Positions 3,067 through 25,345 of a DNA stretch of 64,000 nucleotides are shown here, piece by piece; position 1 is the first letter of the stretch; each line of letters begins with the position of its first letter. This stretch comes from a virus. The stretch lies in the IMG/VR virus record IMGVR_UViG_3300045988_053091, one strand, 5' to 3'. The notes beneath the pieces are model-generated. The model was not told where the DNA came from. It ran no database searches and saw only the letters and a program-made list of their open reading frames with translations. The translations under genes were made by a program, and so were the position numbers.

Positions 3067-3075
3067 ATTGTACTG

Positions 3076-12501: not shown

Positions 12502-12592
12502 TTGCTAGTCAAGATTACTTGGTTAGCAGATTCGTGTTTGTTAATAGCATGATAACCTCCCTCTTCCCCAAATTTAGGGAGGTTCCACCTTT

Positions 12593-12664
12593 TGTCAGGT
12601 CGTCTAACAGGTAGGACATAACTCTTTGGAAGTTACGATACAGGTTCGAACCCTGTCCTGACAG
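12593..12664 (+). tRNA. tRNA-Gln (TTG)
   Basis: Acceptor TGTCAGG/CCTGACA, D-stem GTCT/GGAC, anticodon arm TAACT-CTTTGGA-AGTTA, T-arm ACAGG-TTCGAAC-CCTGT. Confidence 0.9.
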
Positions 12665-12737
12665 TTGTACAGTTACGGCTGTACAAACTATGTTTCTATG
12701 TTATAATGGTTGTAGGCTTTTAGAGACATCTCTCTTA

Positions 12738-12773
12738 CCCCTGTTTAATTACAGGGGTTCCCTTTTTGTTTTT
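12738..12773 (+). terminator. intrinsic terminator
   Basis: CCCCTGT/ACAGGGG stem followed by TTCCCTTTTTGTTTTT. Confidence 0.7.
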
Positions 12774-12799
12774 GGAAGGTTACTCAAATGGTTAAGGAG
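12774..12799 (+). pseudogene. 5' fragment (acceptor strand plus D-arm) of a tRNA-Ser gene
   Basis: GGAAGGTTACTCAAATGGTTAAGGAG is near-identical to the first 26 nt of tRNA-Ser(GGA) at 20144. There is no anticodon arm, T-arm or 3' strand after it. Confidence 0.6.
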
Positions 12800-12807
12800 T
12801 GTTTAAC

Positions 12808-13386
12808 TTGGTATCAGCCAAAGATATTGCAAACAATGACAACATCAGAATGCAATTACAGGAGTTGTTAAACTCGAATTTGTCAAAAGTATCAATAGCT
12901 AGAGAACTAGGTTGTACTCCGAAAACTTTAAATAAAGCTTTAAAAGATATGGGTATTAACTACAACTTTTATAAAGCTGTATCCGGTAATAATGGAAAAT
13001 CTAAAATATGTAAAGTGTGTAAAAAGACTAAACCCTTATCTGATTATTACATGTCGGGTTCCGGTAGACAGCTTAATACATGTAAACCTTGTGTTCGTGC
13101 TGAGGAAAAGCTAAAATATGCTAGTAAGCTTAGGTCTTTTAACGATTATAAATCAAGTATCGGATGTCAAAAATGTGGAGACACTAGACATTACGTTTTA
13201 GACTTTCATCATAAAGACCCTAATGAGAAGGAGTTTACTTTAGCTGATAAAGCAAGGGCTTCATTTCTTAATGATGAAGTGCAAAACGAAATCAAGAAAT
13301 GCGTTTTGCTGTGCTCAAACTGTCACAGAGAATTTCATTATTTAGAGAGAACATCAGGTATAACTATTACAGAATATCTTTCATAA
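12808..13386 (+). CDS. HNH homing endonuclease with N-terminal HTH
   Basis: LDFHHKDPNEK...CVLLCSNCHREFHY HNH motif plus two CxxC pairs. TTG 12808 lies 8 nt after AAGGAG (the track start GTG 12799 overlaps that RBS). Confidence 0.8.
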   Translation: MVSAKDIANNDNIRMQLQELLNSNLSKVSIARELGCTPKTLNKALKDMGINYNFYKAVSGNNGKSKICKVCKKTKPLSDYYMSGSGRQLNTCKPCVRAEEKLKYASKLRSFNDYKSSIGCQKCGDTRHYVLDFHHKDPNEKEFTLADKARASFLNDEVQNEIKKCVLLCSNCHREFHYLERTSGITITEYLS

Positions 13387-13414
13387 AAAAATCAAAAAAA
13401 CTTACAAAAAGGTG

Positions 13415-13443
13415 TTTACAACTTTGTAATGTTATGCTATATT
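13415..13443 (+). promoter_or_regulatory. promoter of the large non-coding RNA locus
   Basis: TTTACA, 17-nt spacer, TGCTATATT. The 16-mer GTTATGCTATATTAGT is identical to 21161-21176. Confidence 0.65.
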
Positions 13444-14025
13444 AGTATTACACCACAAGTTAGTGGTTAAAAATTGAAAACTTAATAGATTTTGAACCTA
13501 GTGCAGAAAGTTTGAACAGCTTGCTAGGATAACGTGGCGTGAATCTGGATGTAACCGAAGGTGCGATAGTGCTTTGGGTTGCAGGTAGGTCTTATGGTGA
13601 CATAGGAGTAACTATTAGTAAAAGCTAATATCAGTTAAGCGTTATGTGGAGTATACATGGATTGTAAGGTACAAGACTCTTGGGGGATACAATAGACGTT
13701 CCTGTGGAAAAGAATCCAAGTTAGGTGGAAGTGTGAGAAGCTTGGCAGACCTTGGAAAACTCAAAAGACTCCCTTTGACGAGAACTGTAGAAATACAGGT
13801 TTAACAAGAGACCTTGGTACAAGTAGCTTAAGTCAGCTTTTGATGAAAATATTATAAAAGACATAAGGATATATGTTCATTAATACTTTTAATAGCTGAA
13901 TGTTTAGGTGAACGTTGTTAGCCACCGTGCTAGACCATACATTAAAGGCAGAGAGAAGCTATCGGGTAGCTCCCGATGGTTCAGCCTCTCTGAGTATGTG
14001 ACCGAATGCAGTGAGTGTATATGAA

Positions 14026-14068
14026 GCAGGAAGAAAAGCCCTTAATCTATTAAGTTTTGAGTTTTTAA
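14026..14068 (+). repeat. 43-nt direct repeat, copy A1
   Basis: GCAGGAAGAAAAGCCCTTAATCTATTAAGTTTTGAGTTTTTAA, identical to 14527-14569. Confidence 0.95.
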
Positions 14069-14428
14069 ACATGTCACTGTGGCGGAAGTAGAAAATGCTA
14101 TGGTAGTAAACCTGTTATGAGTAGTTTTTATCTATTAAGTTAACACTTTAATAGGCGTGAGTGGGGCAGTACCACTCCAGTGACTTAAAGAACCTACGGA
14201 AACAATCAATCTTATCGGATGCCGATTGGTTGGCTGAATTAAGCAGTGTGTCTGCGAATCAGTTAATAGGCATAAAATACTAGCACAGACGTGTGCCGCT
14301 CTCAGGTGTAGGTTAGGAGAGAAACATTAGCAACCGAGGGTTGGAAATGGGCGCTCAAAGTACACGAGCAAGGCGATGTCGGTAGTAATCGACGGAATCG
14401 GTGTAGGTTGCTTGATAGAGCTATAACT

Positions 14429-14455
14429 GCATCTCGTTTATGAGATGTGTTTTTT
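14429..14455 (+). terminator. intrinsic terminator
   Basis: GCATCTC/GAGATGT stem followed by GTTTTTT. Confidence 0.7.
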
Positions 14456-14497
14456 ACAGATTAAATCATTCTAAGAGTGGTCTTTTTATCTTACATA

Positions 14498-14526
14498 AAG
14501 GAAAGAATTTTCTCCTTATTATTTTT
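14498..14526 (+). terminator. second terminator-like hairpin
   Basis: AAGGA..TCCTT stem then ATTATTTTT; resembles the terminator at 15223. Confidence 0.45.
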
Positions 14527-14569
14527 GCAGGAAGAAAAGCCCTTAATCTATTAAGTTTTGAGTTTTTAA
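14527..14569 (+). repeat. 43-nt direct repeat, copy A2
   Basis: Identical to 14026-14068; lies 16 nt upstream of the next tRNA-like gene. Confidence 0.95.
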
Positions 14570-14585
14570 CCAAACTTGTATTACT

Positions 14586-14657
14586 GCGGAGATGCTGAAC
14601 GGTTTAGGCACTTGACTCATAACCAAGCTTTAGTGGGTTCGACTCCCACCTACCGCA
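14586..14657 (+). tRNA. tRNA-like, anticodon CAT (Met/Ile2 type), imperfect acceptor stem
   Basis: Good T-arm GTGGG-TTCGACT-CCCAC and loop CTCATAA, but the acceptor GCGGAGA/CTACCGC pairs at only 4 positions plus a wobble. Confidence 0.45.
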
Positions 14658-14784
14658 ATAGGAACCGCAGAGTGGTAAATTGGTATTCCACTCGTACAAT
14701 TTATTGTCTTGAACAATAATGTATAACCAAAAAAACTCACGTAGACGTACGAATCCCCTAGGTGGCGGTGGTTGGGGAAACATT

Positions 14785-14859
14785 GGGCTATTGGAGCAGT
14801 CAGGAGTGCTCGTCTCCCTGTCACGGAGAAGGTCATGGGTTCAAGTCCCATATAGCTCG
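14785..14859 (+). tRNA. tRNA-Asp (GTC)
   Basis: Acceptor GGGCTAT/ATAGCTC, D GAGC/GCTC, anticodon arm TCTCC-CTGTCAC-GGAGA, T ATGGG-TTCAAGT-CCCAT. Confidence 0.9.
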
Positions 14860-14864
14860 TTTAT

Positions 14865-14936
14865 GGCGCATTGGTCAAGCGGTCAAGACACCGGTCTTTC
14901 GAACCGGAATCGAGAGTTCGACTCTCTCATGCGCTA
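14865..14936 (+). tRNA. tRNA-Glu (TTC)
   Basis: GGTCAAGCGGTCAAGACA D-region typical of Glu, anticodon arm CCGGT-CTTTCGA-ACCGG, G1.U72. Confidence 0.85.
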
Positions 14937-15143
14937 TTATTCATTATTATTTTCTCTTTTATTTATTCTGTTTATATCTTAAAACTATCATTATTGGAAA
15001 GGAGGCATATGGACATGCCTAAGAAATTTATTACTCTCTCAGTCACATTTATTAAACAATTATGGCACTCAACACTAGTATCATATGCCTCCCTTTCTGG
15101 GACTATATGACTTACTAAGGTTTATTTCGTGGTATTATTACAC

Positions 15144-15216
15144 GGACTATTAGCTCAGTAGGTCAGAGCCGTCAGCTCATAACTGACAGGTTTGGGTTCG
15201 ATTCCCAAGTAGTCCA
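15144..15216 (+). tRNA. tRNA-Met (CAT), elongator or Ile2 type
   Basis: Acceptor GGACTAT/GTAGTCC, D GCTC/GAGC, anticodon arm GTCAG-CTCATAA-CTGAC. Confidence 0.9.
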
Positions 15217-15222
15217 TTTTTT

Positions 15223-15252
15223 TAGGGAGAAATATTTCTCCCTATTATTTTT
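15223..15252 (+). terminator. intrinsic terminator
   Basis: TAGGGAGAA/TTCTCCCTA stem then TTATTTTT. Confidence 0.75.
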
Positions 15253-15262
15253 ATAAAAAGTG

Positions 15263-15291
15263 TTGACTTTCGGTACAACACATGATACTAT
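15263..15291 (+). promoter_or_regulatory. sigma-A-type promoter
   Basis: GTGTTGACT, 17-nt spacer, TGATACTAT. Confidence 0.65.
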
Positions 15292-15301
15292 AAGTTTACA
15301 A

Positions 15302-15343
15302 GGTAAGCAGTAAGGGCTTGTAAGGTTCGAATCCTTAATTACC
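15302..15343 (+). other. tRNA minihelix-like element (acceptor-like stem plus T-arm, no anticodon arm)
   Basis: GGTAA...AAGG-TTCGAAT-CCTT..TTACC, immediately downstream of a promoter. Confidence 0.35.
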
Positions 15344-15428
15344 TCTTCCACTTTTAATAGTGGTATGTTTTAATCTCTCATTATCTTACATTTTTCGGAG
15401 GGTTGTTAGTCCCTCCCCTCCGAATCTT

Positions 15429-15500
15429 GCGCTGTTGGTGTAGTGGCTATCATTTCCGGCTCCAACCCGGAAGACGGGGGTTCGAATCCTTCACAGCGTG
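15429..15500 (+). tRNA. tRNA-Trp (CCA)
   Basis: Acceptor GCGCTGT/ACAGCGT (G1.U72), anticodon arm TCCGG-CTCCAAC-CCGGA, T GGGGG-TTCGAAT-CCTTC. Confidence 0.85.
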
Positions 15501-15740
15501 TATTCTTGGACAGCGGTGATAGTTATAGTGTACTATCCTTCACAGGAACGAATTACTGGTATGTAGCACTCTACTGGTAATTGTTGAAGAATGTGACGTG
15601 TTTACAAGAGTAAAGTCATCTAAGGCAGTGTTGCCGAGTCTAGGTTCTGATAGCGCAGGTGTAAAGCAGACTAGTGCCCTGTTTTCACTTATCAGTTTAT
15701 GTGAGTCCCGATGCAGATAAAAACCTAGAGGGATGCTAAT

Positions 15741-15813
15741 GCGGGAGTAGCCAAGTGGGTTAAGGCTAGGGATTGCAAACCCCTGAACGTGAGTTCGAAT
15801 CTCACCTTCTGCT
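15741..15813 (+). tRNA. tRNA-Cys (GCA)
   Basis: Acceptor GCGGGAG/CTTCTGC (two G.U), loop TTGCAAA, T GTGAG-TTCGAAT-CTCAC. Confidence 0.8.
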
Positions 15814-15934
15814 TATGACATAAATCTGACTTGTCATCAGATTTTTAGTACCTGTACTCATTTTTGGGTATCCACACTTCAAAGGCATAGGACTTATCTT
15901 AGTAACCACGTGGGGGATAAGTCCAAATTGACAC

Positions 15935-16008
15935 GGAGAGGTAGCTCAGTAGGTTAGAGCACTAGCCTGAAAAACTAGGGGTCGGTGGTTCAATTCCACC
16001 CCTCTCCA
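15935..16008 (+). tRNA. tRNA-Phe (GAA)
   Basis: Acceptor GGAGAGG/CCTCTCC, anticodon arm CTAGC-CTGAAAA-(A)CTAG, T GGTGG-TTCAATT-CCACC. Confidence 0.9.
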
Positions 16009-16025
16009 TTCTATTGAGGGGTTAC

Positions 16026-16097
16026 GCTGATTTAGTATAACGGCTATTACTCCGGCTTTGTAACCCGGGAATGGGAGTTCGATTCTCTCAATCAGCA
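16026..16097 (+). tRNA. tRNA-Thr (TGT)
   Basis: Acceptor GCTGATT/AATCAGC, loop TTTGTAA, T GGGAG-TTCGATT-CTCTC. Confidence 0.85.
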
Positions 16098-16202
16098 TTG
16101 TGAGCGGAAACTCACAAATTAATGTTTTGAATGATTGGCTAGTTATCTGGTTAGTTAGTGCGAACATTGCATACAATTATCTATATAGAATTTTATCAAT
16201 AA

Positions 16203-16277
16203 GCTAGTTTTGTGTCTAGTGGTCTATGTGAGCTTCATAACCTCATGGCGGTTCGATTCCGTAAGGCTTAACTAGCT
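16203..16277 (+). pseudogene. non-canonical tRNA-like element with CAT anticodon loop
   Basis: Acceptor GCTAGTT/AACTAGC and loop TTCATAA are fine. The D-stem is weak and 6 extra nt sit between the T-stem and the 3' acceptor strand. Confidence 0.35.
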
Positions 16278-16289
16278 ATTGGTAATCTT

Positions 16290-16363
16290 ATCTCCTTAGC
16301 TCAGTTGGTGGTAGCACCTGACTCTTAATCAGGGGGTCACAGGTTCGAATCCTGTAGGGGATA
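16290..16363 (+). tRNA. tRNA-Lys (CTT)
   Basis: Acceptor ATCTCCT/AGGGGAT, anticodon arm CCTGA-CTCTTAA-TCAGG, T ACAGG-TTCGAAT-CCTGT. Confidence 0.85.
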
Positions 16364-16365
16364 TT

Positions 16366-16439
16366 CTCGAAGAGTTGGTGTATGGCTTTGGTAACACGCC
16401 TCTTAGGAGGAGCAGGCAGTTCAAATCTGTCAGTCGAGA
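16366..16439 (+). pseudogene. tRNA-like element with aberrant anticodon arm (CCTC-TTAG-GAGG)
   Basis: Normal T-arm GGCAG-TTCAAAT-CTGTC and 5 acceptor pairs, but the anticodon region folds as a 4-bp stem with a tetraloop and reads TAGGAGGAG. Confidence 0.3.
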
Positions 16440-16497
16440 CCCTTAGTTTTTCTATTAGTAACGGTTTTTCGAGAGGGTTATCTTGAAAAACACAACT

Positions 16498-16571
16498 GTC
16501 TTCATAGCTCAATCGGCTAGAGCACTCGACTTTTAATCGAGGGGTTCGGGGTTCAAGTCCCTGTGGAGACA
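16498..16571 (+). tRNA. tRNA-Lys (TTT)
   Basis: Acceptor GTCTTCA/TGGAGAC, anticodon arm CTCGA-CTTTTAA-TCGAG, T CGGGG-TTCAAGT-CCCTG. Confidence 0.9.
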
Positions 16572-16600
16572 TTGGCTAGTACATTGTTACTAACCTAGAG

Positions 16601-16673
16601 CGACAGTTCGTTCAATTGGATAGGATGCTAGACTACGAATCTAGTGATAGAGGTTCGATTCCTTTACTGTCGG
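16601..16673 (+). tRNA. tRNA-Arg (ACG)
   Basis: Acceptor CGACAGT/ACTGTCG, anticodon arm CTAGA-CTACGAA-TCTAG. Confidence 0.9.
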
Positions 16674-16680
16674 TTAGCAT

Positions 16681-16783
16681 ACGGGAGTGGCGTGTAGGGC
16701 ATACGCACCTGTTAGTTCAGGCAGAGGTTAATAATTCATGAATAAACCCTCGAATATCGTAGGTTCGAATCCTACCTTCCGTA
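16681..16783 (+). pseudogene. 103-nt Leu-like tRNA-like element with 6-nt anticodon loop and oversized variable arm
   Basis: Acceptor ACGGGAG/CTTCCGT, D GCGT/ACGC and T GTAGG-TTCGAAT-CCTAC are good. The anticodon region CCTG-TTAGTT-CAGG is 3 nt short, and the variable region is about 36 nt with an internal palindrome ATTCATGAAT. Confidence 0.4.
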
Positions 16784-16789
16784 TAAAAT

Positions 16790-16823
16790 GCGGGTGTCAG
16801 AGGTTCAAATCCTCTCACTGGTA
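16790..16823 (+). other. tRNA minihelix-like remnant (Leu-like acceptor strand fused to T-arm)
   Basis: GCGGGTG-TC-AGAGG-TTCAAAT-CCTCT-CACTGGT. Confidence 0.35.
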
Positions 16824-16929
16824 TTTGCCTTAATTGGAAAACTATGACCTGTCGTTAGTTTACGTCTTACACTTTGGTGAAGAAACGTTTTTCGGGAGGT
16901 AGCTTTTATATATGAATGGAGGGGCAATT

Positions 16930-17349
16930 ATGACATATAAAGTGTTACACGGAGAGGACAGTTTAGCGCCTCTGCTATGGACATTTTTTATTAGAGAAGG
17001 TCTATCCGTGTCAGAAACAGAAAGTTATAAATGTGTTGGTCAACGAGGACTAAATGCAGATTATGTTCCACATGAATTAAGCCTTGATACACCTGTTATC
17101 TTTTATGAAATGAAGAGTACTGTAGTATTTAAATGTGTTAACGGTGTGCAGGAAAAAACACCTTGTTTATTTTTTGATACATCCGAAAAAACTTGTTGTA
17201 TTACGGAAGAACTATATGATATTCTTGAAGAACTATATGGAACTGATATTTATTTCCTAGCTAAAACACTTGACCCAGAATTAGCATTGTCCTCCGTTTA
17301 TTCAGAAGGTTGGTTATCTACTTTTATAGAGTTGAGACAGCAGGTTTAG
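16930..17349 (+). CDS. hypothetical protein
   Basis: ORF track; start moved to the second ATG, behind a GGAGGGG RBS. Confidence 0.55.
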   Translation: MTYKVLHGEDSLAPLLWTFFIREGLSVSETESYKCVGQRGLNADYVPHELSLDTPVIFYEMKSTVVFKCVNGVQEKTPCLFFDTSEKTCCITEELYDILEELYGTDIYFLAKTLDPELALSSVYSEGWLSTFIELRQQV

Positions 17350-17424
17350 CACACAATAATAAGGAGTGGTTCCTGTGAAGAAAGTATTGTCTAAATTGTA
17401 AGTATCTATTAAGGAGGACTTACA

Positions 17425-17676
17425 ATGAGTAGAAGTTACAGAAAACCCTATTACCGTTATGTTTGTATGAAGGACTCAACTATTCGAGACATAAAAAGAA
17501 TGGTTAACAGAAATTACAGGCATAAATTAAATCAAGGTCGTTTTGATGACGAAGTAACATTGACACATCATAAACGAGTAGAAGAAACTTGTTGGACATA
17601 TGACATGAAAAAATTCTATGCCCACGAGGATGATTACAAGAATAATAATTTTTATCAGAAATTGAGAAGAAAGTAG
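17425..17676 (+). CDS. hypothetical basic protein
   Basis: ORF track 83 aa; AAGGAGG RBS. Confidence 0.6.
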   Translation: MSRSYRKPYYRYVCMKDSTIRDIKRMVNRNYRHKLNQGRFDDEVTLTHHKRVEETCWTYDMKKFYAHEDDYKNNNFYQKLRRK

Positions 17677-17684
17677 GTAATATC

Positions 17685-17906
17685 TTGAAAGCAGACTATG
17701 TAGTTGCAGAAGACTGGGAAGGTATTTATCTTGATGATAAACTTCAAATAGAAGGACACAGTATACAAACAGCAGAAGCAATGAAACTTACTATTGAAAA
17801 TGAAGTAACGGAGTTAACTGTTTACGAGATTGACCAAGAGTACATGAAAGAGCTAGGTTCTCTACCCGAAAGTTTCTCTCAATTAGATTCATCAAAACTT
17901 TTTTAA
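17685..17906 (+). CDS. hypothetical acidic protein
   Basis: ORF track 73 aa; TTG start. Confidence 0.5.
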   Translation: MKADYVVAEDWEGIYLDDKLQIEGHSIQTAEAMKLTIENEVTELTVYEIDQEYMKELGSLPESFSQLDSSKLF

Positions 17907-17925
17907 ATAAATTTCTATGTAAGTG

Positions 17926-17954
17926 TTGACTTTCCTTACAAGATGCTGTATAGT
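17926..17954 (+). promoter_or_regulatory. sigma-A-type promoter for tRNA-His unit
   Basis: GTGTTGACT, 17-nt spacer, TGTATAGT; the -10 lies in the loop of an 11-bp hairpin (17932-17969). Confidence 0.65.
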
Positions 17955-17977
17955 AATTCTTGTAAGGAACACATGAT

Positions 17978-18049
17978 GGTGACTGTAGCCTAATGGTAAG
18001 GCAGTGTTCTGTGGAAACATGAATCTCAGTTCGATTCTGAGCAGTCACA
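17978..18049 (+). tRNA. tRNA-His (GTG) with encoded G-1
   Basis: G-1 then acceptor GTGACTG/CAGTCAC, anticodon arm GTGTT-CTGTGGA-AACAT. Confidence 0.9.
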
Positions 18050-18226
18050 TAAGGTTACACTTTTCCTTACTAGATTAACTTGTCCGAAAATTTTGAGGAA
18101 ATACTCTTTTAGCCTCTTTTTCGTTAAAACATATCTTAACCCATTCATAAGAAAAATGTTGATATATAAAGTGGTATTTTTCCAGAAGTGAGAAATCATA
18201 AGTAATCTAGTTTAAAAAGTGATTAT

Positions 18227-18311
18227 GCGAGAGTGTTGGAATTGGTAGACATGTGGCACTTAGAATGCCATGCCTGTGATGGGCGTGAGGGTTCGAATCC
18301 CTCCTCTTGTA
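18227..18311 (+). tRNA. tRNA-Leu (TAG), class II
   Basis: Acceptor GCGAGAG/CTCTTGT, anticodon arm TGGCA-CTTAGAA-TGCCA, long variable arm, T GAGGG-TTCGAAT-CCCTC. Confidence 0.8.
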
Positions 18312-18543
18312 TTAGGTCAACGGAAATTGACCTTTACGTTTTACATGGTTAAGTAGTTTACGTAATGAAGACTGTCCTGTTAGATTTAAGTAAAATACTT
18401 AGGTTAAAGACCGGAACAACTTACCCTTATAGTCCGGTGGTGGAGACGTTACATTTTCCGTAACTCATTTTCATTTTTTAATTGTATACTTTTGATTAGA
18501 CCCTGCCGGAAGGGTAGGGTTAGTCAAAAGAAATTCTTATGTT

Positions 18544-18891
18544 GGGGCTGTTTTGGTTTCGACTGGCGTAAGGAGTATATGAATAGCGGGCAGAGTGATG
18601 ACTTAATCATCGCAGTAAATATAACTGCTAAAAACGAAGAATTATTAGCTGTAGCCTAGTTTTAGACTAGCTACACACTTACCCCTCTAGACTAGGGTCG
18701 GTTCTACCTAGAGGACTCATTAACCGACAACGCTGAGGTAAAAGTGGATAACTCAGGAGAGGCTTTACCACTCAGTTAAGGTAATTTCAGTTATTAGTTG
18801 TAACCTTAACGTAGATTAAAACTAGTAACTACGCCCGTAGAATTTTGTATGGTTCTACGTCAACACAGGGGTTCGATTCCCCTCAGTTCCA
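18544..18891 (+). ncRNA. ssrA: tmRNA (SsrA), phage-encoded
   Basis: The 5' end GGGGCTGTTTTGGTTTCGACTGGCG and the 3' end AGGGG-TTCGATT-CCCCT-CAGTTCC-A form the tRNA-like domain. Internal tag frame is GCT AAA AAC GAA GAA TTA TTA GCT GTA GCC TAG (AKNEELLAVA), 18627-18659. Confidence 0.8.
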
Positions 18892-18896
18892 TTTTG

Positions 18897-19619
18897 TTAT
18901 TTTATATATGACCAACGGTAGCCACATGAAGTGGTTCTGCCCTCATAACCATGTACTGCTCTTGTTATATTACTAGTAGAAGTTCCGATGTATTCTGAGG
19001 CTTCTCTAACAGAATCAAATTCTTTTATAACAACAGAGGTGTCCTTATCAATCATAGCTATTCGTTTCTTTTTGGTTGATGACTCTGTAGCTAACTTTCT
19101 CATAAGTTCACTATATCTTTTAGACTTTTCGGGATTGTCATAAGCTTTAGCAGATGTAGGTAGGTCATAGTCTTTACACCATTTTTTAATAGCGTTTGAG
19201 GATACACCATAGTAGCTAGCGACTTTACTAAAAGAATCAAGCATTAGCTGATTGTAAAGCTTGTCTCTAGTTACACCATATTTTAATTCACGTTTCTTAT
19301 TAATTTCTTCTTTTGAAAGACCATTGCGTGAAGTGATTATCTGGTTGTAACCATTACCAATAGAGTTATACTTTGCAATATACTTGTTCTCGATAGAATT
19401 AAGTTCCGAATGGTTCGGTACAACTTCTAGGATTTCAAATATGAAGTTTTCCATTCCGTGTTTTCTAAATGCACGGTGTAGGGGAGTTTCGTAATCAGTA
19501 GCATTAGTATTAAAAGTACTATGTCTGTGTTCGTTCCACCTACGTTCAATATCCTTTGATTGTCCTACGTAGTGTCTATTGTTAACAATATTTGTAATTA
19601 AGTAAATTCCTTGTGTCAT
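18897..19619 (-). CDS. GIY-YIG homing endonuclease
   Basis: GIYLITNIVNNRHYVGQSKDIERRWNEH.. GIY-YIG core, with C-terminal helix-turn-helix-like repeats. Start moved to ATG 19619 behind an AAGGAG RBS; TGCTATATT -10 motif at 19653-19661. Confidence 0.85.
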   Translation of the reverse strand: MTQGIYLITNIVNNRHYVGQSKDIERRWNEHRHSTFNTNATDYETPLHRAFRKHGMENFIFEILEVVPNHSELNSIENKYIAKYNSIGNGYNQIITSRNGLSKEEINKKRELKYGVTRDKLYNQLMLDSFSKVASYYGVSSNAIKKWCKDYDLPTSAKAYDNPEKSKRYSELMRKLATESSTKKKRIAMIDKDTSVVIKEFDSVREASEYIGTSTSNITRAVHGYEGRTTSCGYRWSYIK

Positions 19620-19666
19620 GTTGTAAGTCTCCTTTTTATATGTTATACTTACAATATAGCACAAGT

Positions 19667-19698
19667 GGAGTTGTAGGGTTCAATTCCCGTCAGCTCCA
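19667..19698 (+). pseudogene. decayed duplicate of the tmRNA 3' end (T-arm plus acceptor strand)
   Basis: GGAGTTGTAGGGTTCAATTCCCGTCAGCTCCA parallels 18860-18891. CAGCTCC complements the tmRNA 5' end GGGGCTG, but the T-stem keeps only 3 pairs. Confidence 0.5.
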
Positions 19699-19862
19699 TA
19701 GACTGCCTTTGTCAAGCAGTCGAATCCTATCTAATTTTTTCATTAAATAAATATCGAATTGTGGCTGATTTCTACGGATTCAGAGCGGAGCATCCCCGCA
19801 GGTTGGGCATACTACAGTCCCCCCCATGATGCTTCATGGGTTATACATAATAAGGAGGTAAC

Positions 19863-20048
19863 ATGATGTATTTAAAATTCATTGGTTTAAACGGAAGTTT
19901 AGGTTTAGTGAAGGACAAGATATACTTTGTTACCTCTGAGATACATGAACATTATATTATTTTGAGAATACATGGTGTTCACGGTAAGACAGTAATGTGT
20001 CCGTACGAAGCATTAGAAAAAGTGTTAGAAAATTGGCAGGTCTGTTAG
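19863..20048 (+). CDS. hypothetical protein
   Basis: ORF track 61 aa; strong TAAGGAGG RBS. Confidence 0.6.
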   Translation: MMYLKFIGLNGSLGLVKDKIYFVTSEIHEHYIILRIHGVHGKTVMCPYEALEKVLENWQVC

Positions 20049-20143
20049 TATGCAGATAGTAGGGTGTGCATAAAGCCTAGGGAACAACATGCACAGAAGA
20101 TTAGGTATTGTGTACTTGACACAAACCCGCCTGCTCCCAAGAC

Positions 20144-20230
20144 GGAAGGTTACTCAAACGGTAAAGAGGCTTGGTTGGAAACCAAGTAGATGTGTAACAG
20201 CATGTGTGGGTTCGAATCCCATGCCTTCCA
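20144..20230 (+). tRNA. tRNA-Ser (GGA), class II
   Basis: Acceptor GGAAGGT/GCCTTCC, anticodon arm CTTGG-TTGGAAA-CCAAG, long variable arm, T GTGGG-TTCGAAT-CCCAT. Confidence 0.9.
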
Positions 20231-20326
20231 TTTGAAATATAAACTACTAAAGCTGTTTAAAGAGTTCGGTTTAAGTAGTTCCGGTTGGCTAGTCAACTAA
20301 CAGTACTAGTCAATCAATTTCTTTTT

Positions 20327-20413
20327 CGAGGAGTATCATAACTGGAAAAAATTGACTCTTGAAAAGTCATAGACGTGTAAAAGCGTTTGGGGGTTCGAGT
20401 CCCTCCTCCTCGG
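20327..20413 (+). tRNA. tRNA-Ser (TGA), class II, D-stem essentially unpaired
   Basis: Perfect acceptor CGAGGAG/CTCCTCG and anticodon arm TGACT-CTTGAAA-AGTCA. The D region TCATAACTGGAAAAAA has no stem. Confidence 0.6.
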
Positions 20414-20439
20414 TTCATTAAAGATAATGGAGGCTAATC

Positions 20440-20808
20440 ATGAGTTTTCGTAAAGGTAAACACAAGGAGCCTTCTAAGTGGCAAAGATTTATTAAATCAA
20501 TCATGGAAGTAGAAGGTGAAAACATGGAGGACACATTGTTTGAAAAAGCTTTTGATTCTTGGAAAGCAGGAGATAAAAGTGAAGAGGTACAACGAGTTTT
20601 ATTAGATTCTGGTTTAGAGCAGTATAAAACTGGTGGTAAGTATAATGTGGATGCTGTTAGAGAAATCTGTGAGAAAGCCCATAAAGGTGAGACTGTTTAC
20701 AGGAAAGACAAGCATATCTTACAAGATTTCTATGAATGTTTAGAATGGGAAAACTTCCATACTGAAATTGAAGCAATTGAATTGTTTACAGGAGTATCCT
20801 ATATATAG
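20440..20808 (+). CDS. hypothetical protein
   Basis: ORF track 122 aa; GGAGG RBS. Confidence 0.6.
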   Translation: MSFRKGKHKEPSKWQRFIKSIMEVEGENMEDTLFEKAFDSWKAGDKSEEVQRVLLDSGLEQYKTGGKYNVDAVREICEKAHKGETVYRKDKHILQDFYECLEWENFHTEIEAIELFTGVSYI

Positions 20809-20837
20809 TCATATTTATAAATTAGGGGGTAGTTGTT

Positions 20838-21002
20838 ATGAAATACACAGTTAAAAAAGGTGACACATTGTATTCTATTGCTAGAAAATATTATGGCAAG
20901 CCTTGGTTATGGAGACTAATTTGGTTACATGGTCAGAATAGGAATATTAAAGACCCTAATAAAATTAGAATTGGTCAAACAATTTATCTTCCGTTTAAGT
21001 AA
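20838..21002 (+). CDS. small LysM-domain protein (54 aa)
   Basis: Not in the track (under 60 aa). ATG behind a GGGGGT RBS. YTVKKGDTLYSIARKYYG...IRIGQTIYLP is a LysM motif. Confidence 0.55.
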   Translation: MKYTVKKGDTLYSIARKYYGKPWLWRLIWLHGQNRNIKDPNKIRIGQTIYLPFK

Positions 21003-21006
21003 GTAT

Positions 21007-21079
21007 ATCTCCGTAGGCTAATTGGATAAACCACAGGATTTCTAATCCCGCATTCTGAGTTCGAATCTCAGCGGAGGTG
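21007..21079 (+). tRNA. tRNA-Arg (TCT)
   Basis: Acceptor ATCTCCG/CGGAGGT, loop TTTCTAA, T CTGAG-TTCGAAT-CTCAG; one mismatch in the anticodon stem and a weak D-stem. Confidence 0.7.
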
Positions 21080-21087
21080 TTTTATAC

Positions 21088-21120
21088 GGGGCATTAGCTC
21101 AGTTGGGAGAGCGCTACCCT
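21088..21120 (+). pseudogene. 5' half of an Ala-like tRNA (G3.U70) ending two nt into the anticodon loop
   Basis: GGGGCAT-TA-GCTC-AGTTGGG-AGAGC-G-CTACC-CT. Confidence 0.65.
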
Positions 21121-21934
21121 ATTTAAATTATTTTTTAGCCAATTCGAACACTAAGATGTAGTTATGCTATATTAGTGTTCGAAGAGGTGGAAAGTATGGT
21201 TAAAGTAAGTAAAGTTTACAGTGTAAGTGATGAAGATTTTAAGCTAGTTGTTGCTAATTCTAACACAATCACAGATATTCTTTGGAAGTTAGGATACAGT
21301 AAATCTTCTGGAACAGGTAACGCCAGAAATTTAATCAAAAAGCGGATAGCTGAACTAGGCATTACCTTCCAGTCACAACCAGTCAAATCTAGCAGAATGT
21401 CAGACGAGAGCTTTTATGTTAAAGGAACTTATCGTAGTAACCTACGAGTAAGAGTTCTACAAGATGGTTTCTTAGAGTATAAATGTTCGGAATGTGGTAT
21501 AACTAGTACTTGGAACGGTAAACCGTTAACTCTACAATTAGACCACGTTGACGGGGATGCTACAAATAATGAAAAGCCGAATTTACGATGGTTATGCCCT
21601 AATTGCCATACACAAACAGAGACGTATGGGTCAAAGAACAAAGGAAGCACAAGGACTAAGCATAGAGGAACTTATGGTGAACGAGAATGTAAGTATTGCC
21701 ATAAAATGTTTACTGCCAAGAACAGAGAATCCATGTTCTGTAGCGGGCAGTGTTCTGGTAAAAGCCGTAAGAAGACTCCACCTGTTTCTAAAGAAGACCT
21801 ACTAGCTTTGTTAGAAAAGGAGTCATTTTTGTCAGTGGGTCGTAAGTTTGACGTTTCAGATAACACTGTACGTAAATGGTGTATGCGTTATGATATACCT
21901 AGTAAGTCTTCTTATTATAAAAAATAATTTAAAT
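21121..21934 (+). mobile_element. 814-bp HNH-endonuclease insertion in the tRNA anticodon loop, bounded by a perfect 16-nt inverted repeat
   Basis: ATTTAAATTATTTTTT (21121-21136) and AAAAAATAATTTAAAT (21919-21934). Only about 82 nt are non-coding. Confidence 0.7.
21196..21927 (+). CDS. HNH homing endonuclease
   Basis: LDHVDGDATNNEKPNLRWLCPNCHTQ HNH motif with flanking HTH-like regions. ATG 21196 behind a GAGGTGG RBS. -10 TGCTATATT at 21165-21173 sits between 12-bp inverted repeats. Confidence 0.85.
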   Translation: MVKVSKVYSVSDEDFKLVVANSNTITDILWKLGYSKSSGTGNARNLIKKRIAELGITFQSQPVKSSRMSDESFYVKGTYRSNLRVRVLQDGFLEYKCSECGITSTWNGKPLTLQLDHVDGDATNNEKPNLRWLCPNCHTQTETYGSKNKGSTRTKHRGTYGERECKYCHKMFTAKNRESMFCSGQCSGKSRKKTPPVSKEDLLALLEKESFLSVGRKFDVSDNTVRKWCMRYDIPSKSSYYKK

Positions 21935-21971
21935 AAGGTAGATGTCAGCGGTTCAAGTCCGCTATGCTCCA
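21935..21971 (+). pseudogene. 3' half of the Ala-like tRNA
   Basis: AA-GGTAG-ATGTC-AGCGG-TTCAAGT-CCGCT-ATGCTCC-A; GGTAG pairs with CTACC of the 5' half. Confidence 0.65.
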
Positions 21972-22028
21972 TAGCTGTACTCTGCGCAAGGTGCAGTGAA
22001 TTTAGTTACCTAGCTAGAAATTAAATAG

Positions 22029-22095
22029 GTATGCGTAGCTTAAGTGGATAAAGTGACCTATGAAGTAGATAGGGGTTCAAATCCCCTCGCATATC
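22029..22095 (+). pseudogene. short (67-nt) tRNA-like element lacking a normal anticodon arm
   Basis: Acceptor GTATGCG/CGCATAT, D GCTT/AAGT and T AGGGG-TTCAAAT-CCCCT, but only 16 nt lie between the D- and T-arms. Confidence 0.35.
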
Positions 22096-22260
22096 ATTAG
22101 GATTGGTCATCCTTGTTCAGGGTTGCAAACCTGTAACAGAATACGAGGTGAATTAACACCATATTGGGCGTTACCCTAGATTCCTGTCAAATCTATTGGT
22201 ACGGTAACTAGACTAGGTGTGTGTAATCGGAAGATGACAGGTACACAAGCCTATCCAATA

Positions 22261-22337
22261 GGACAGTGTTACACGGGTTCGATTCCCGTCCTGCGGGTTG
22301 TCCCTGCGGGTGGCTGAATGGTTAAAGCACACTGTCC
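22261..22337 (+). ncRNA. circularly permuted tRNA-like RNA domain (YrlA-type tRNA mimic candidate)
   Basis: 8-bp closing stem GGACAGTG/CACTGTCC, 4-nt variable, T-arm ACGGG-TTCGATT-CCCGT, 8-bp acceptor-like stem CCTGCGGG/CCTGCGGG (G.U-containing) capped by TTGTC, then TG and D-arm GCT-GAATGGTTAA-AGC. Confidence 0.5.
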
Positions 22338-22372
22338 CGAATGGATAAATTAAAAAAACTTACAAATAGTTG

Positions 22373-22400
22373 TTGACAGCATGTAAGTTTGTGTTATAAT
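22373..22400 (+). promoter_or_regulatory. sigma-A-type promoter for tRNA-Pro unit
   Basis: TTGACA, 16-nt spacer, TGTTATAAT. Confidence 0.7.
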
Positions 22401-22415
22401 GTATGTATAAGTTAA

Positions 22416-22488
22416 CGGGAAATAGCGCAGTTGGTAGCGCACACGCTTTGGGAGCGTGGGGTCGTAGGTTCAAGTCCTGCTTTCCCGA
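22416..22488 (+). tRNA. tRNA-Pro (TGG)
   Basis: Acceptor CGGGAAA/TTTCCCG, anticodon arm CACGC-TTTGGGA-GCGTG, T GTAGG-TTCAAGT-CCTGC. Confidence 0.9.
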
Positions 22489-22661
22489 TTAGAAGTTTAG
22501 TTGGTGGGCAACAGTAAAACCCAATATTCAAACTTCTATAACAAATATCCTTGGTTAAAATGAGTCCTAGCTCAACTCTAGGCAAGGTATTATGGAGTTA
22601 ATAGGAGAATGACAAGACAGGAATGATACTTCGCTGTCGGGTACCCGCCTATTAACATTAT

Positions 22662-22732
22662 GTGGATTTAGTATAAGGGTAACATCTTTGGCTCTCAACC
22701 AAAGGGTGCGGGTTCGAATCCTGCAATCCATA
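22662..22732 (+). tRNA. tRNA with anticodon CTC (Glu by anticodon)
   Basis: Acceptor GTGGATT/AATCCAT (G1.U72), anticodon arm TTTGG-CTCTCAA-CCAAA, T GCGGG-TTCGAAT-CCTGC; D-stem weak. Confidence 0.7.
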
Positions 22733-22928
22733 TATTCGTATCGCCTTGCGCCTCTTAATATGCGTACCAAGGGTGGTCTATTGGGTTGTATGTAGGCATT
22801 GTGTATATAAGACTAGTCACGTGTGAGGCAATACTAGTTGAAGTTATACAATGTACCCCATTAATACACTATGAGAGCTACCTCACTAAAAGTTTTTGTA
22901 CATTGTATTGATATATACATACTTATAC

Positions 22929-23010
22929 GGGGAGTTATACCGTAAGTAGTAGCGGGGCTGACTGTAAATCAGTTGCGAAAGCTCGGGTGGTGCAACTCCA
23001 TCACTCCCCA
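22929..23010 (+). tRNA. tRNA-Tyr (GTA), class II, unusual T-loop TGCAACT
   Basis: Acceptor GGGGAGT/ACTCCCC, anticodon arm GCTGA-CTGTAAA-TCAGT, variable arm GC-GAAA-GC. Confidence 0.7.
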
Positions 23011-23040
23011 TTAAAATAAAATGACCGGAGGTCACATAAC

Positions 23041-23265
23041 ATGTCTAAATTTTATGGAATTATTTCAACAACTTCTACTCGTACAGAAGAGTACGAACAA
23101 AAGTTAAAAAACGGAAAGACGGTTAAGAAAACTCGTGAAATTACTGTGCCAAAAGAAGTTACAGTACAGTCTTCTCAACCAGACCGTTTAGGTGCTCGTA
23201 AAGAGCTAGAAGCTTTTGCACGTAAATGCAAAGGTACTGTTAAATATATTGGAGCTTTTAAATAA
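23041..23265 (+). CDS. hypothetical basic protein
   Basis: ORF track 74 aa; GGAGG RBS. Confidence 0.6.
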   Translation: MSKFYGIISTTSTRTEEYEQKLKNGKTVKKTREITVPKEVTVQSSQPDRLGARKELEAFARKCKGTVKYIGAFK

Positions 23266-23289
23266 GTTTCAATATATTTAAATTAATAC

Positions 23290-23318
23290 TTGACAGTTTA
23301 AATAGCTTATGCTATTAT
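23290..23318 (+). promoter_or_regulatory. promoter of the Y-RNA-like transcription unit
   Basis: TTGACA, 17-nt spacer, TGCTATTAT. Confidence 0.7.
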
Positions 23319-23334
23319 AAAGACAAGATAAAAA

Positions 23335-23515
23335 GGTTTTGACATATGTCATAGTTCCAACCTAACAGGTAGCCGGAACATAAAGAACGCCACAGCAAAC
23401 TTTTAAAACTAATACATCTGGAAAATGTGAGTTGTTGGTTCGAATCCAACTGCCACCCTTGGTGGTATAGCTTAATTGGTAAAGCTTAAAGTTAATGCGT
23501 TCTTGTTACATAAAT
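23335..23515 (+). ncRNA. Y-RNA-like RNA 1 with internal permuted tRNA-like domain (YrlA-like candidate)
   Basis: Conserved 5' module shared with RNA 2. Helix AAGAACGC (23383-23390) pairs with GCGTTCTT (23497-23504). Inner helix 23398-23406/23486-23493. T-arm GTTGG-TTCGAAT-CCAAC. 7-bp acceptor-like stem capped by CTT. D-arm GCTT-AATTGGTA-AAGC. Confidence 0.5.
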
Positions 23516-23520
23516 AAAAC

Positions 23521-23640
23521 GGTTTTAGCATAGCTATAGTTCCATCCTTAATGGGTGCCGGAACATAAAGAACCCTACAGCAATCAACTACTAATATATT
23601 AAAACTATTGAATTTAATTAAGCCTGTGGTTCTTGATATT
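23521..23640 (+). ncRNA. Y-RNA-like RNA 2 (no tRNA-like domain; YrlB-like candidate)
   Basis: The first ~60 nt are homologous to RNA 1, with compensatory changes in two hairpins. Helix AAGAACC (23568-23574) pairs with GGTTCTT (23628-23634) around an AT-rich loop. Confidence 0.4.
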
Positions 23641-23698
23641 GTAATGACAAGTTAAACGGTAGCCGCTAAACCGAATGTTTAACTGTCGGTTATTTGAA

Positions 23699-23726
23699 AC
23701 TCATTCTTAATTGAATGGGTTTTTTA
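23699..23726 (+). terminator. intrinsic terminator
   Basis: ACTCATTC/GAATGGGT stem then TTTTTTATTT. Confidence 0.7.
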
Positions 23727-23739
23727 TTTATAAAAGGCG

Positions 23740-23768
23740 TTGACTTACATAATATTACATGTTATAGT
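23740..23768 (+). promoter_or_regulatory. sigma-A-type promoter of the vWA protein gene
   Basis: TTGACT, 17-nt spacer, TGTTATAGT. Confidence 0.7.
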
Positions 23769-23809
23769 TATGTTAGACAAAACATTACCATACAAAGGAG
23801 AAATGTCAG

Positions 23810-25345
23810 ATGTCGTTTTTAGACAACCTAAAAGAAGAAACAACTGTTGGCTCTACAGAAAATGGAGCTAAAACTTATACATCAACTTTAAACGCTAACT
23901 TAGACTTCTTTGCACAAGCAGGGGCTATGCGTGGTCGTTTAGAAGATGTACGAAACATGTTTTCTAAAGCTTATGCTGAAAACCCAGAGTTAGCATTACG
24001 CAATTTGGTACACTTACGTAATATCCGTTTAGGTGGATTGGGTGAACGTTCCGCTTACCTAGAAGCAATCAAATACTTAGTGGATGGTCGTAACCAAAAC
24101 AAGCAAGTAATCGTTACTTTAATGGAGTACATGGCATATGTTGGTCGTTGGACAGACTTATTTGAAACTATGGAGTACGCACACAAACGTAGTATTCACT
24201 TTGTGGATACAGAAGGCGCACGTATCATCGGTAACCAACTAACATCTGATATTAAAAATATGTCAGAAGGTAAGCCTGTATCATTACTAGGTAAATGGTT
24301 AGCTAATGTAAGTTCTCCAAATAGCAAGAAACGTAATCAAGGTGCTCGTATTGCTAACTATTTAGGTTTTGAAGGCAAAGCAGGTCTAACTCGTTATCGT
24401 AAAATGATTGCTAAATTACGTGATTACTTAAATGTAATTGAAGTTCGGTTAGCAAGCAAGGAATACCATAAGATTGATTTGAACCAAGTATCCTCTAAAG
24501 CATTGTTCAAATACCGTAAAGCTTTGCAATTACACATGCCAGATGAATATGAAGCGCTTATGGAAAAGGTGGAGTCGGGTGAAGGAAAGCTTAATGCAAG
24601 TTTGGTATTACCTCACGAGATTACAGGAGCATACCGTAAAGCACGTGCAGGTCAGGGTGTAAATCGTTCTTTAGAAGCTACTTGGCAGTCTTTAGATGAT
24701 GTTATTAAGGATGTGGAAGATAACGCAATTGTAGTTGCTGATTCTTCTAGTTCAATGACTTGGGAACAAACGAACGGGGTTTACCCTTGGGATGTTGCAC
24801 AAGGTTTAGCATTATACACGGCTGAAAAATTAAACGGTACTTTCGCTAATCATTTCATTACATTTGCATCAGAACCTAGTTTAGTATATTTGAATCCACA
24901 GGATACTGTGTATGACCGTATGAGAGCATATAACAGTGCAAGAGTTGGCTATTCTACTAATATTCAAGCAGTGTTCCGATTGATTCTTGATACTGCGGTT
25001 AAGCATAACACACCGCAAGAAGAACTACCATCCAAGATTATTATTATCAGTGATATGGAATTTAATACTGCTTGTGAACGAGGACAAAGAACAAACTTTG
25101 AGCAAGCAAAACAGGAGTTTGCAAATCATGGCTACGAGTTACCTGCTATTATTTTCTGGAATGTACAATCTCGTCATGATAATGTACCAGTACGGTTTAA
25201 TGAAGATAATGTTGCGTTAGTTTCTGGATTTTCCACAAATATTTTATCGCAAGTACTAGGTGGGGAAGTTACTTCCCCAGAAGAAATGATGTTGTCTGTT
25301 TTAAATAAACCAGAATACGACTTTGTAAAAGAAGCACTTAAATAA
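23810..25345 (+). CDS. helical-repeat plus vWA (MIDAS) protein, DUF2828-like, with Ro60/TROVE-like architecture
   Basis: The N-terminus TENGAKTYTSTLNANLDFFAQAGAMRG..LRNLVHLRNIRLGGLGERSAYLEA resembles the DUF2828 family. The C-terminal VVADSSSSMTW..IIISDMEFN is a vWA fold with a DxSxS MIDAS motif. Confidence 0.55.
   Translation: MSFLDNLKEETTVGSTENGAKTYTSTLNANLDFFAQAGAMRGRLEDVRNMFSKAYAENPELALRNLVHLRNIRLGGLGERSAYLEAIKYLVDGRNQNKQVIVTLMEYMAYVGRWTDLFETMEYAHKRSIHFVDTEGARIIGNQLTSDIKNMSEGKPVSLLGKWLANVSSPNSKKRNQGARIANYLGFEGKAGLTRYRKMIAKLRDYLNVIEVRLASKEYHKIDLNQVSSKALFKYRKALQLHMPDEYEALMEKVESGEGKLNASLVLPHEITGAYRKARAGQGVNRSLEATWQSLDDVIKDVEDNAIVVADSSSSMTWEQTNGVYPWDVAQGLALYTAEKLNGTFANHFITFASEPSLVYLNPQDTVYDRMRAYNSARVGYSTNIQAVFRLILDTAVKHNTPQEELPSKIIIISDMEFNTACERGQRTNFEQAKQEFANHGYELPAIIFWNVQSRHDNVPVRFNEDNVALVSGFSTNILSQVLGGEVTSPEEMMLSVLNKPEYDFVKEALK

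Follow-up and report, generated by a model that had tools for sequence, protein, structure and literature searches.

A putative HNH homing-endonuclease gene in place of the anticodon of an Enterococcus phage tRNA-Ala gene

To our knowledge, homing endonuclease genes are thought to persist inside other genes only where an intron or an intein hides them. The tRNA-Ala gene at positions 21,088–21,971 of the IMG/VR virus record IMGVR_UViG_3300045988_053091 (a stretch of 64,000 nucleotides (nt), referred to here in its full length as the window) is split in its anticodon loop by a cassette that encodes an HNH endonuclease, and it raises the question of whether such an insert is an intron in disguise, from which a functional tRNA can still be recovered, or an endonuclease gene that has invaded the tRNA gene and destroyed it. 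A first-pass annotation, made from the sequence of the window alone, left three possibilities standing: that the gene had been killed by endonuclease invasion, that its RNA is processed into tRNA halves at a long A-U helix formed by the ends of the insert, or that splicing takes place by an unconventional route. Here we consider it probable that the cassette is a homing endonuclease gene of the free-standing HNH type, lodged without a ribozyme between U33 and A37 of a tRNA-Ala(UGC) gene, and we discuss, with more reserve, what the helix between its ends may do.

The split gene and its intact allele

The window, which represents the phage tRNA region, derives from a phage of Enterococcus in the genus Schiekvirus (Herelleviridae, Brockvirinae). 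In this region ARAGORN and Rfam identify 20–22 tRNAs, one transfer-messenger RNA (tmRNA) and one ROOL RNA. Neither program gives a standard call for a tRNA-Ala in the window, and the split gene is reported by ARAGORN solely when introns are permitted. The two halves of the gene (Table 1) nevertheless join to an acceptor stem with G3:U70, a D arm, an anticodon stem of CTACC/GGTAG and a T arm; the acceptor strand of the 3' half carries U70 and a discriminator A, and CCA is not encoded. What the annotation had stated about the sequence, namely a cloverleaf from halves of 33 and 37 nt with exactly three nucleotides absent from the anticodon loop, holds throughout, and the comparison with uninterrupted alleles that it had called for identifies the missing anticodon as TGC. 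Thirty GenBank phages, CCS1, EfV12-phi1 and EFDG1 among them, are 95–99% identical to the window; these related records match the flanks, none has the insert, and the best of them spans 64% of the query. The 5' half is identical to the corresponding stretch of the uninterrupted tRNA-Ala(tgc) in CCS1, which reads ...GCGCTACC-CT-TGC-AA-GGTAGATG..., and an intact allele with TGC is also found in phage iF6. These alignments show that the interrupted gene, as it stands, would be unable to yield a decoding tRNA-Ala.

Table 1. Features of the split tRNA-Ala gene and its surroundings (positions in the window)
Feature	Positions	Strand	Remarks
tRNA-Arg(tct)	21006..21080	+	upstream neighbour, 7 nt before the split tRNA-Ala
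tRNA-Ala, 5' half	21088..21120	+	33 nt, positions 1-33: acceptor strand with G3, D arm, 5' anticodon-stem strand, C32, U33
HNH homing-endonuclease cassette (putative)	21121..21934	+	814 base pairs (bp) in place of the anticodon TGC, which alone is lost
Terminal helix, 5' arm	21121..21137	+	pairs with 21918-21934, stacks on the anticodon stem
Inner inverted repeat/hairpin	21143..21183	+	arms 21143-21157/21169-21183, 15 nt, 93% complementary
Shine-Dalgarno sequence AGAGGTGG	21183..21190	+	5 nt before ATG; read from the sequence; conserved in loci L005 and L100
HNH endonuclease open reading frame (ORF)	21196..21927	+	243 amino acids, intact; stop TAA 21925-21927
Terminal helix, 3' arm	21918..21934	+	overlaps the last two Lys codons and the stop TAA 21925-21927
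tRNA-Ala, 3' half	21935..21971	+	37 nt, positions 37-73: A37, A38, 3' anticodon-stem strand, variable loop, T arm

Because the tRNA-Arg(tct) gene ends only 7 nt upstream, the cassette sits within a tRNA operon. Its single ORF matches PHROG 10822 ('HNH endonuclease') with E = 4e-49 and gives weak Pfam HNH matches; a sequence search of the PDB returned a weak match to the McrA HNH only and added nothing. An alignment of 15 homologues has C97, C100, H117, N129, C134, C137 and H138 as invariant residues (the CxxC...CxxC pattern, His and Asn), and reads as a protein of probably four domains: an N-terminal helix-turn-helix-like domain, the HNH domain with CxxC..CxxC, a Cys4 ribbon and a C-terminal helix-turn-helix. 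Over its whole length the ORF can be aligned with homologues that are free-standing, for example P0004, whose neighbours are an HU gene and a tRNA. Against the homologue at locus L005 (73% amino acid identity) the differences amount to 0.16 at non-synonymous sites (pN) and 0.84 at synonymous sites (pS), the latter being saturated, and near-identical copies of the cassette differ at 4–8 synonymous and 0–1 non-synonymous positions; the gene is, by both measures, under purifying selection.

There is little room in the cassette for anything else. If ATG at 21196 is taken as the start, the non-coding part comes to 75 + 7 = 82 nt, in line with the first estimate of about 82 nt. An Rfam search of positions 11000–25000 of the window gave neither a group I intron (RF00028) nor any other ribozyme at E ≤ 1, and the insert has no match to any Rfam family at that threshold; a true group I intron in the neighbouring tRNA-Leu(UAA) of the related locus L040 scores 64 bits. 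The 5' exon ends in T, as expected of group I, and the insert ends in ...TTTAAAT, its last base being T and not the G of group I introns. With intact relatives, a mobile HNH gene at the same junction (described below), no room for a ribozyme and the anticodon gone, it is the first of the three possibilities, the killing of the gene by endonuclease invasion, that the evidence supports.

Horizontal spread and relatives of the cassette

The same cassette is present on two contigs of a different phage lineage (L003 and L004) with identical junctions and 99.1–99.3% identity over its 814 bp, set in flanks that are only about 76–84% identical to those of the window. In the alignments the sequence background switches at the borders of the tRNA-Ala gene, so that the 33-nt and 37-nt exons are the only common flanks. 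The exact HNH protein of the window occurs on 18 metagenomic contigs, and identical junctions were found in eight listed places among these, which represent several backgrounds, and on two contigs with a variant (P0122) that differs by one amino acid. Copies of the cassette were found through the protein index only; the exact junction and 5' untranslated region patterns had no match in IMG/VR, the JGI metagenomes or the GTDB genomes. Such comparisons show that the cassette has, as far as sequence can tell, spread horizontally between diverged phages, and presence or absence with precise borders, together with near-identical copies in diverged backgrounds, is the pattern regarded as the signature of homing. 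We infer that the HNH enzyme cuts the empty allele. In a co-infecting phage whose tRNA-Ala gene is uninterrupted it would cleave that gene, and the cassette would then be copied in during repair; the conserved tRNA sequence, identical between diverged phages, would act as a portable landing pad, and the loss of the gene would be tolerated because phage tRNA genes are dispensable.

More distant relatives of the cassette, with HNH proteins of 45–73% amino acid identity, lie at the same site between tRNA positions 33 and 37. At L005 the HNH gene splits, at the same place, the syntenic G3:U70 tRNA-Ala of a much more distant phage, and HNH genes with 45–49% identity interrupt an Asn-type tRNA (L099), a Gly/Glu-type tRNA (L100) and the tRNA-Lys(CTT) of the GenBank Schiekvirus PEf771 (MN241318.1, L102, positions 1098–1932; compare 16289–16364 of the window). 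In PEf771 a 759-nt cassette (PEf771_65) follows position 36 and no exon nucleotide is lost, and L099 may likewise keep all its exon nucleotides; the anticodon is missing in the window and in L100. Intact alleles of the L099 and L005 tRNAs were searched for and not found, nor were close relatives of these phages. The three bases after U33 in the five lineages are ATT, TTT, GTT, ATT and CTT, an NTT pattern which suggests that a Lys- or Asn-type anticodon was carried with the cassette into new tRNAs by recombination in the conserved CU...AA flanks of the loop. A carried-over anticodon would explain why exactly three bases are replaced.

A further branch of the family has a different junction. In phage iF6 (L002, MT909815.1, positions 1500–2340) a cassette with an HNH protein related at 48–50% replaces 26 nt of a tRNA-Pro gene, from the D loop to the anticodon stem, and this junction is constant across iF6 and each of the eight metagenomic places that were examined (L006–L013), the protein being present in 44 blocks of the contig index. 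The Ala and Pro cassettes occur together on one contig (L193). More generally, a tRNA gene lies within 1.2 kb of the HNH relatives in 73 of 80 loci from IMG/VR and 66 of 80 from the JGI metagenomes (139/160), and the 'hegA'/F-Tfl genes of T5-like phages are homologues with about 30% identity, a paralogue in Schiekvirus Bop being annotated 'F-TflIV'. This distribution shows the HNH cassettes to be, on present sampling of loci, a family specialising in phage tRNA genes.

Several further observations concern these relatives. The 5' end of the iF6-type cassette has 11 nt (ACCCTAGATTC) in common with a structured RNA region at 22168–22180 of the window. A shorter HNH relative is encoded by inserts of about 0.94–1.03 kb in the anticodon loops of tRNAs at L038, L044, L049, L062, L066, L068, L086, L096, L132, L136, L148, L163 and L164; a conserved RNA segment (...GACGAGGCGCAAGC...GCAGCGTGACAGACTAAAC...GGATGCAATAGTC) forms their 3' end and is preceded by a covarying hairpin. 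It looks like a group I core, and Rfam makes no group I call on these HNH-bearing inserts of about 1 kb. The inserts at L138, L141 and L150 have, by eye, more typical group-I-like ends, and these are not called by Rfam either. At L100 a gene for an RNA ligase of the T4 Rnl2 type (positions 2848–3696) lies about 650 nt 3' of the HNH cassette that splits the Gly-type tRNA.

The terminal helix and its possible roles

The claim that the insert is bounded by a 16-nt inverted repeat without mismatches, which extends the anticodon stem, was borne out: repeat and stem together form 24-nt arms (21114–21137 and 21918–21941) that are 96% complementary, and the 16-mer occurs nowhere else in the window. 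Counted from U33:A37, where the helix begins, 18 of 19 positions form Watson-Crick pairs in the window; L005 has 15 Watson-Crick and two G.U pairs out of 19, arranged as 11 bp, one mismatch and 6 bp, and L099 has 14 Watson-Crick pairs and one G.U. When the 5' arm was shuffled 20000 times, equal pairing arose once for the window, twice for L005 and 12 times for L099. The arms of the window and L005 differ by three compensatory double changes (A-T to T-A, A-T to G-C and T-A to G-C), and by single changes of which two give G.U and one a mismatch. Since these compensatory changes occur where synonymous sites are saturated, the pairing appears to have been maintained and not merely left over, and the helix is, by these tests, not due to chance. 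Folding of the 884-nt transcript predicts a cloverleaf with the long helix as its anticodon arm in the minimum-energy structure, the centroid and the ensemble (z = -4.3), and the same fold is predicted for the transcripts of L005 and L099. Of the two arms, the one at the 3' end consists of ancestral coding sequence, the ...YKK* end of the protein being conserved even in free-standing homologues, and the 5' arm is, from this polarity, its derived complement.

Inside the terminal helix there is a second inverted repeat (Table 1), which surrounds an extended -10 sequence, TGCTATATT (21165–21173), and terminates beside the Shine-Dalgarno sequence. Of the earlier proposal that a promoter -10 sits here between 12-bp inverted repeats, the repeat stands, with arms of 15 nt and not 12. 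The promoter fared less evenly: a motif, TGCTATATTA(n2-4)TTCGA(n0-3)RGG, is conserved in five cassette lineages, as are the extended -10 and the Shine-Dalgarno sequence, and a simple promoter scan made no call at 21165–21173, a -35 element being absent. The arms of the inner repeat are unchanged in L005 in spite of the saturated synonymous sites, and in the iF6-type cassette a comparable hairpin can be traced by eye; PEf771 is without the motif altogether, its ORF beginning 20 nt past the junction. The conservation of the motif argues for a promoter with an extended -10, perhaps combined with an operator or an RNA hairpin.

For the terminal helix we put forward, at less than even confidence, a role in RNA, in which it would clamp the two halves into a tRNA shape with a very long anticodon arm whenever the operon is read through. 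RNase P and RNase Z could then still cut the clamped tRNA-like fold and so release the neighbouring tRNAs, RNase III could possibly cut the duplex of about 24 bp, which contains the stop codon, and cuts at the clamped RNA would define or limit the endonuclease messenger RNA (mRNA). Among the roles open to the helix, we infer the likeliest to be the keeping of a tRNA-like fold so that the transcript of the tRNA operon would still be processed.

Several points weigh against this picture. At L100 and in PEf771, which have the same insertion site, the helix is not significant in the shuffle test, so that it is not required for persistence of the cassette. The covariation is based on two diverged lineages, and a constraint on both ends at the level of DNA fits it equally well. 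The promoter is read from the conserved extended -10 only, the scan having given no call; and if the mRNA comes mostly from that candidate promoter, it does not include the 5' arm and no helix can form. Finally, PEf771 and possibly L099 keep all exon nucleotides, as a true intron would, and for these two cassettes processing is conceivable.

We doubt, without dismissing it, that the terminal inverted repeat is a feature of the DNA with no role in RNA, whether as a scar of insertion, as binding sites for a shared protein or as an UP element. In the first of these routes the self-complementary anticodon stem would let the broken end of the 5' exon (...CTACCCT-3') pair with the wrong strand at the 3' junction of the donor, and about 17 nt would be copied before the template switched; the reverse complement of the 3' junction (CTACC-TT-ATTTAAATTATTTTTT) does nearly equal the 5' junction (CTACC-CT-ATTTAAATTATTTTTT), and the ancestral coding nature of the 3' arm, with the 5' arm as the derived copy, fits such an origin. 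In the last, the A/T-rich 5' arm would serve the promoter of the cassette, about 30–50 nt upstream of whose -10 it lies. The 5' ends of L099 and L100 are identical at 15 of 16 positions where the 3' arm has drifted and pairing is lost, and this end is therefore probably conserved for something other than pairing. A one-off scar, however, should decay at the divergence that separates the window from L005 (pS 0.84), over which three double changes keep the pairing and two of the three single-sided changes within the helix give G.U wobbles; there is neither a target-site duplication nor a transposase; and the window and L005 have homologous arms of almost equal length, which independent scars would not be expected to be.

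The processing into halves considered at the outset has its nearest counterpart in an unlikely alternative, that the long A-U duplex is an RNase III site which separates the endonuclease mRNA from the tRNA halves, truncating the ORF and keeping expression from read-through low, with a two-piece tRNA-like RNA without an anticodon as by-product. The 24-bp duplex with its one mismatch is predicted with high probability, the stop codon at 21925–21927 falls inside the 3' arm, and the trimming of segB by tRNA processing, with a similar proposal for T5 F-Tfl (PMC2330249), offers a precedent; but the helix is shorter in L005 and absent in L100 and PEf771.

It seems improbable that the cassette is the remnant of an HNH-carrying group I intron which occupied this position of the anticodon loop and later lost its ribozyme. 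Shorter HNH relatives do occur in 0.7–1 kb inserts of other phage tRNA anticodon loops, some of which share the 3' RNA segment with its covarying hairpin and others of which have, by eye, group-I-like ends of R/S type; a true group I intron interrupts the neighbouring tRNA-Leu(UAA) of L040, and in PEf771 and possibly L099 the insert follows position 36 with all exon nucleotides kept. Yet the HNH protein of the window has the full four-domain free-standing architecture, of which the intron-borne members match only the first ~150 residues, no trace of a ribozyme core is left, the inserts of about 1 kb are not called group I by Rfam either, and the last base of the insert is T instead of G.

Equally speculative, and in our estimate improbable, is the idea of 'protein-only' tRNA insertion elements, in which the helix would have replaced the ribozyme and would rebuild a tRNA-shaped RNA around the mRNA, to be excised as a unit from the operon transcript by host enzymes. 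This would give an mRNA held together at its two ends by an alanine-type acceptor stem (G3:U70), and the molecule might receive a CCA tail and an alanine. If this were true, its tmRNA-like topology could stabilise or regulate the endonuclease message, and cutting by RNase III would leave a two-piece RNA that accepts alanine and does no decoding.

It is barely credible that the insert is removed as an intron, with the help of proteins or by some novel route, to leave a functional tRNA: the canonical intron position of the insert, the ends brought together by the helix and the complete exons of PEf771 and possibly L099 speak for it, but UGC is absent relative to the intact allele, each 7-nt loop that the ends can supply carries AAU or AUU (the only two triplets, as the annotation had noted) and different anticodons in L005, the duplex is continuous with no bulge-helix-bulge, no ribozyme is detected, the window has no homologue of the Rnl2-type RNA ligase, and the iF6-type relative deletes 26 nt, a third, of its tRNA-Pro. 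The suggestion of unconventional splicing has no support either, since no joining of ends restores UGC and the two tRNA-Ala lineages would differ in anticodon.

Other classes of element were considered and rejected on features of their own: a group I intron, which would need a catalytic core and a terminal G and whose joined exons would lack the three anticodon bases; a bulge-helix-bulge intron, as the duplex is continuous, with 18 of 19 positions paired from 33:37; a transposon or miniature inverted-repeat transposable element, since in spite of the inverted repeats 3 nt are deleted and not duplicated, there is no transposase and no second copy of the repeat in the window, and the sole ORF is the HNH gene; a tmRNA, as RF00023 has no match over 21088–21971 and the phage tmRNA lies at 18544–18894; and splicing with an anticodon borrowed from the ends of the insert, which would be AAU or AUU here and other triplets in L005.

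Relation to known systems and neighbouring features of the window

Endonuclease genes in phage tRNA clusters, such as SegB and F-Tfl (PMC2330249), are already known, as are group I introns in tRNA anticodon loops. The messages of T4 segB and T5 F-Tfl have been proposed to be trimmed by tRNA processing, which would limit their expression (PMC2330249), and SegB has been associated statistically with tRNAs and given a role in amplifying tRNA genes (PMC13096335). Like the cassette, SegB of T4/T6 (GIY-YIG) and F-TflI/II/IV of T5 (HNH, 'hegA') lie in a phage tRNA array, are polymorphic for presence and absence and have spread horizontally. Those genes, however, lie between tRNA genes or overlap their ends, whereas the cassette sits inside tRNA-Ala at the anticodon and destroys the gene, and its ends form a conserved helix that is predicted to restore a tRNA-like fold. 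Group I introns of anticodon loops, for instance in tRNA-Leu(UAA), share with the cassette the region of the tRNA, mobility and the ability to carry an endonuclease ORF, but the cassette has no ribozyme and no terminal G, and its exons are without the anticodon, so that splicing could not rescue the gene. Archaeal split tRNAs and bulge-helix-bulge introns resemble it in having halves joined by a helix that continues the anticodon stem. In the cassette, by contrast, a single transcript surrounds a protein gene, there are no bulges, the host is bacterial and the anticodon is absent; we know of no archaeal-type tRNA splicing endonuclease in bacteria. With tmRNA the split gene shares nothing but topology: both ends contribute to an acceptor end of alanine type (G3:U70) and a T arm, a long helix takes the position of the anticodon arm, and an ORF lies between. 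Unlike in tmRNA, the ORF comes with a ribosome-binding site and start codon of its own, and probably a promoter, and there are neither pseudoknots nor a resume codon.

Our literature searches found no description of a ribozyme-less HNH gene at the tRNA anticodon, in several tRNA species, with a covarying helix that restores the tRNA fold. If our interpretation is right, a dispensable and highly conserved phage tRNA gene, which is target and homology arms in one, provides a route to persistence alternative to hiding in an intron or intein, and the tRNA homology arms allow a single cassette to pass between phages whose surrounding sequence is only about 80% identical. The same anticodon-loop site is used in at least four tRNA species and some lineages keep the covarying helix, a hint that the tRNA-processing machinery is what the element uses to manage its cost or its own expression. 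The finding matters in practice as well: standard tRNA finders miss split genes of this kind, the tRNA-Lys of PEf771 and the tRNA-Pro of iF6 not being annotated in GenBank, and the tRNA repertoires of therapeutic Enterococcus phages may accordingly be miscounted.

The tRNA region of the window has further features of note. A second homing endonuclease gene, of the GIY-YIG type (Pfam GIY-YIG 1.5e-14, NUMOD1), lies on the minus strand at 18897–19664, between the tmRNA and a tRNA-Ser; its C-terminal helix-turn-helix (...VSSNAIKKWCKDYDLP...) resembles the domain at the C terminus of the HNH cassette proteins, and this suggests a DNA-binding module common to both. The tmRNA at 18544–18894 (Rfam; tag AKNEELLAVA) is a true phage tmRNA, found in the same window as the tmRNA-like topology of the split tRNA-Ala, and a full-length ROOL RNA (268 bits) lies at 13473–14059 within the tRNA region. 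Rfam also has tRNA matches of 35.5 and 27.7 bits at 14586–14657 and 22931–23008, where ARAGORN makes no call; these may be degenerate or unusual tRNAs.

Directly 3' of the split gene, tRNA-like modules with weak matches to the Y-RNA-like YrlA occur at 21990–22400 and 23405–23512 (29–33 bits in the window, below threshold, and 46 bits in L003). They are followed by an ORF (23810–25345) for a 511-amino-acid DUF2828/DUF7788 protein, and the modules and this protein could be a phage Y-RNA-like RNA and its partner. A perfect sigma-70 promoter (TTGACA, 16-nt spacer, TG, TATAAT) at 22373–22400, directly 5' of a tRNA-Pro (22416), marks the start of a new transcription unit about 400 nt past the split gene.

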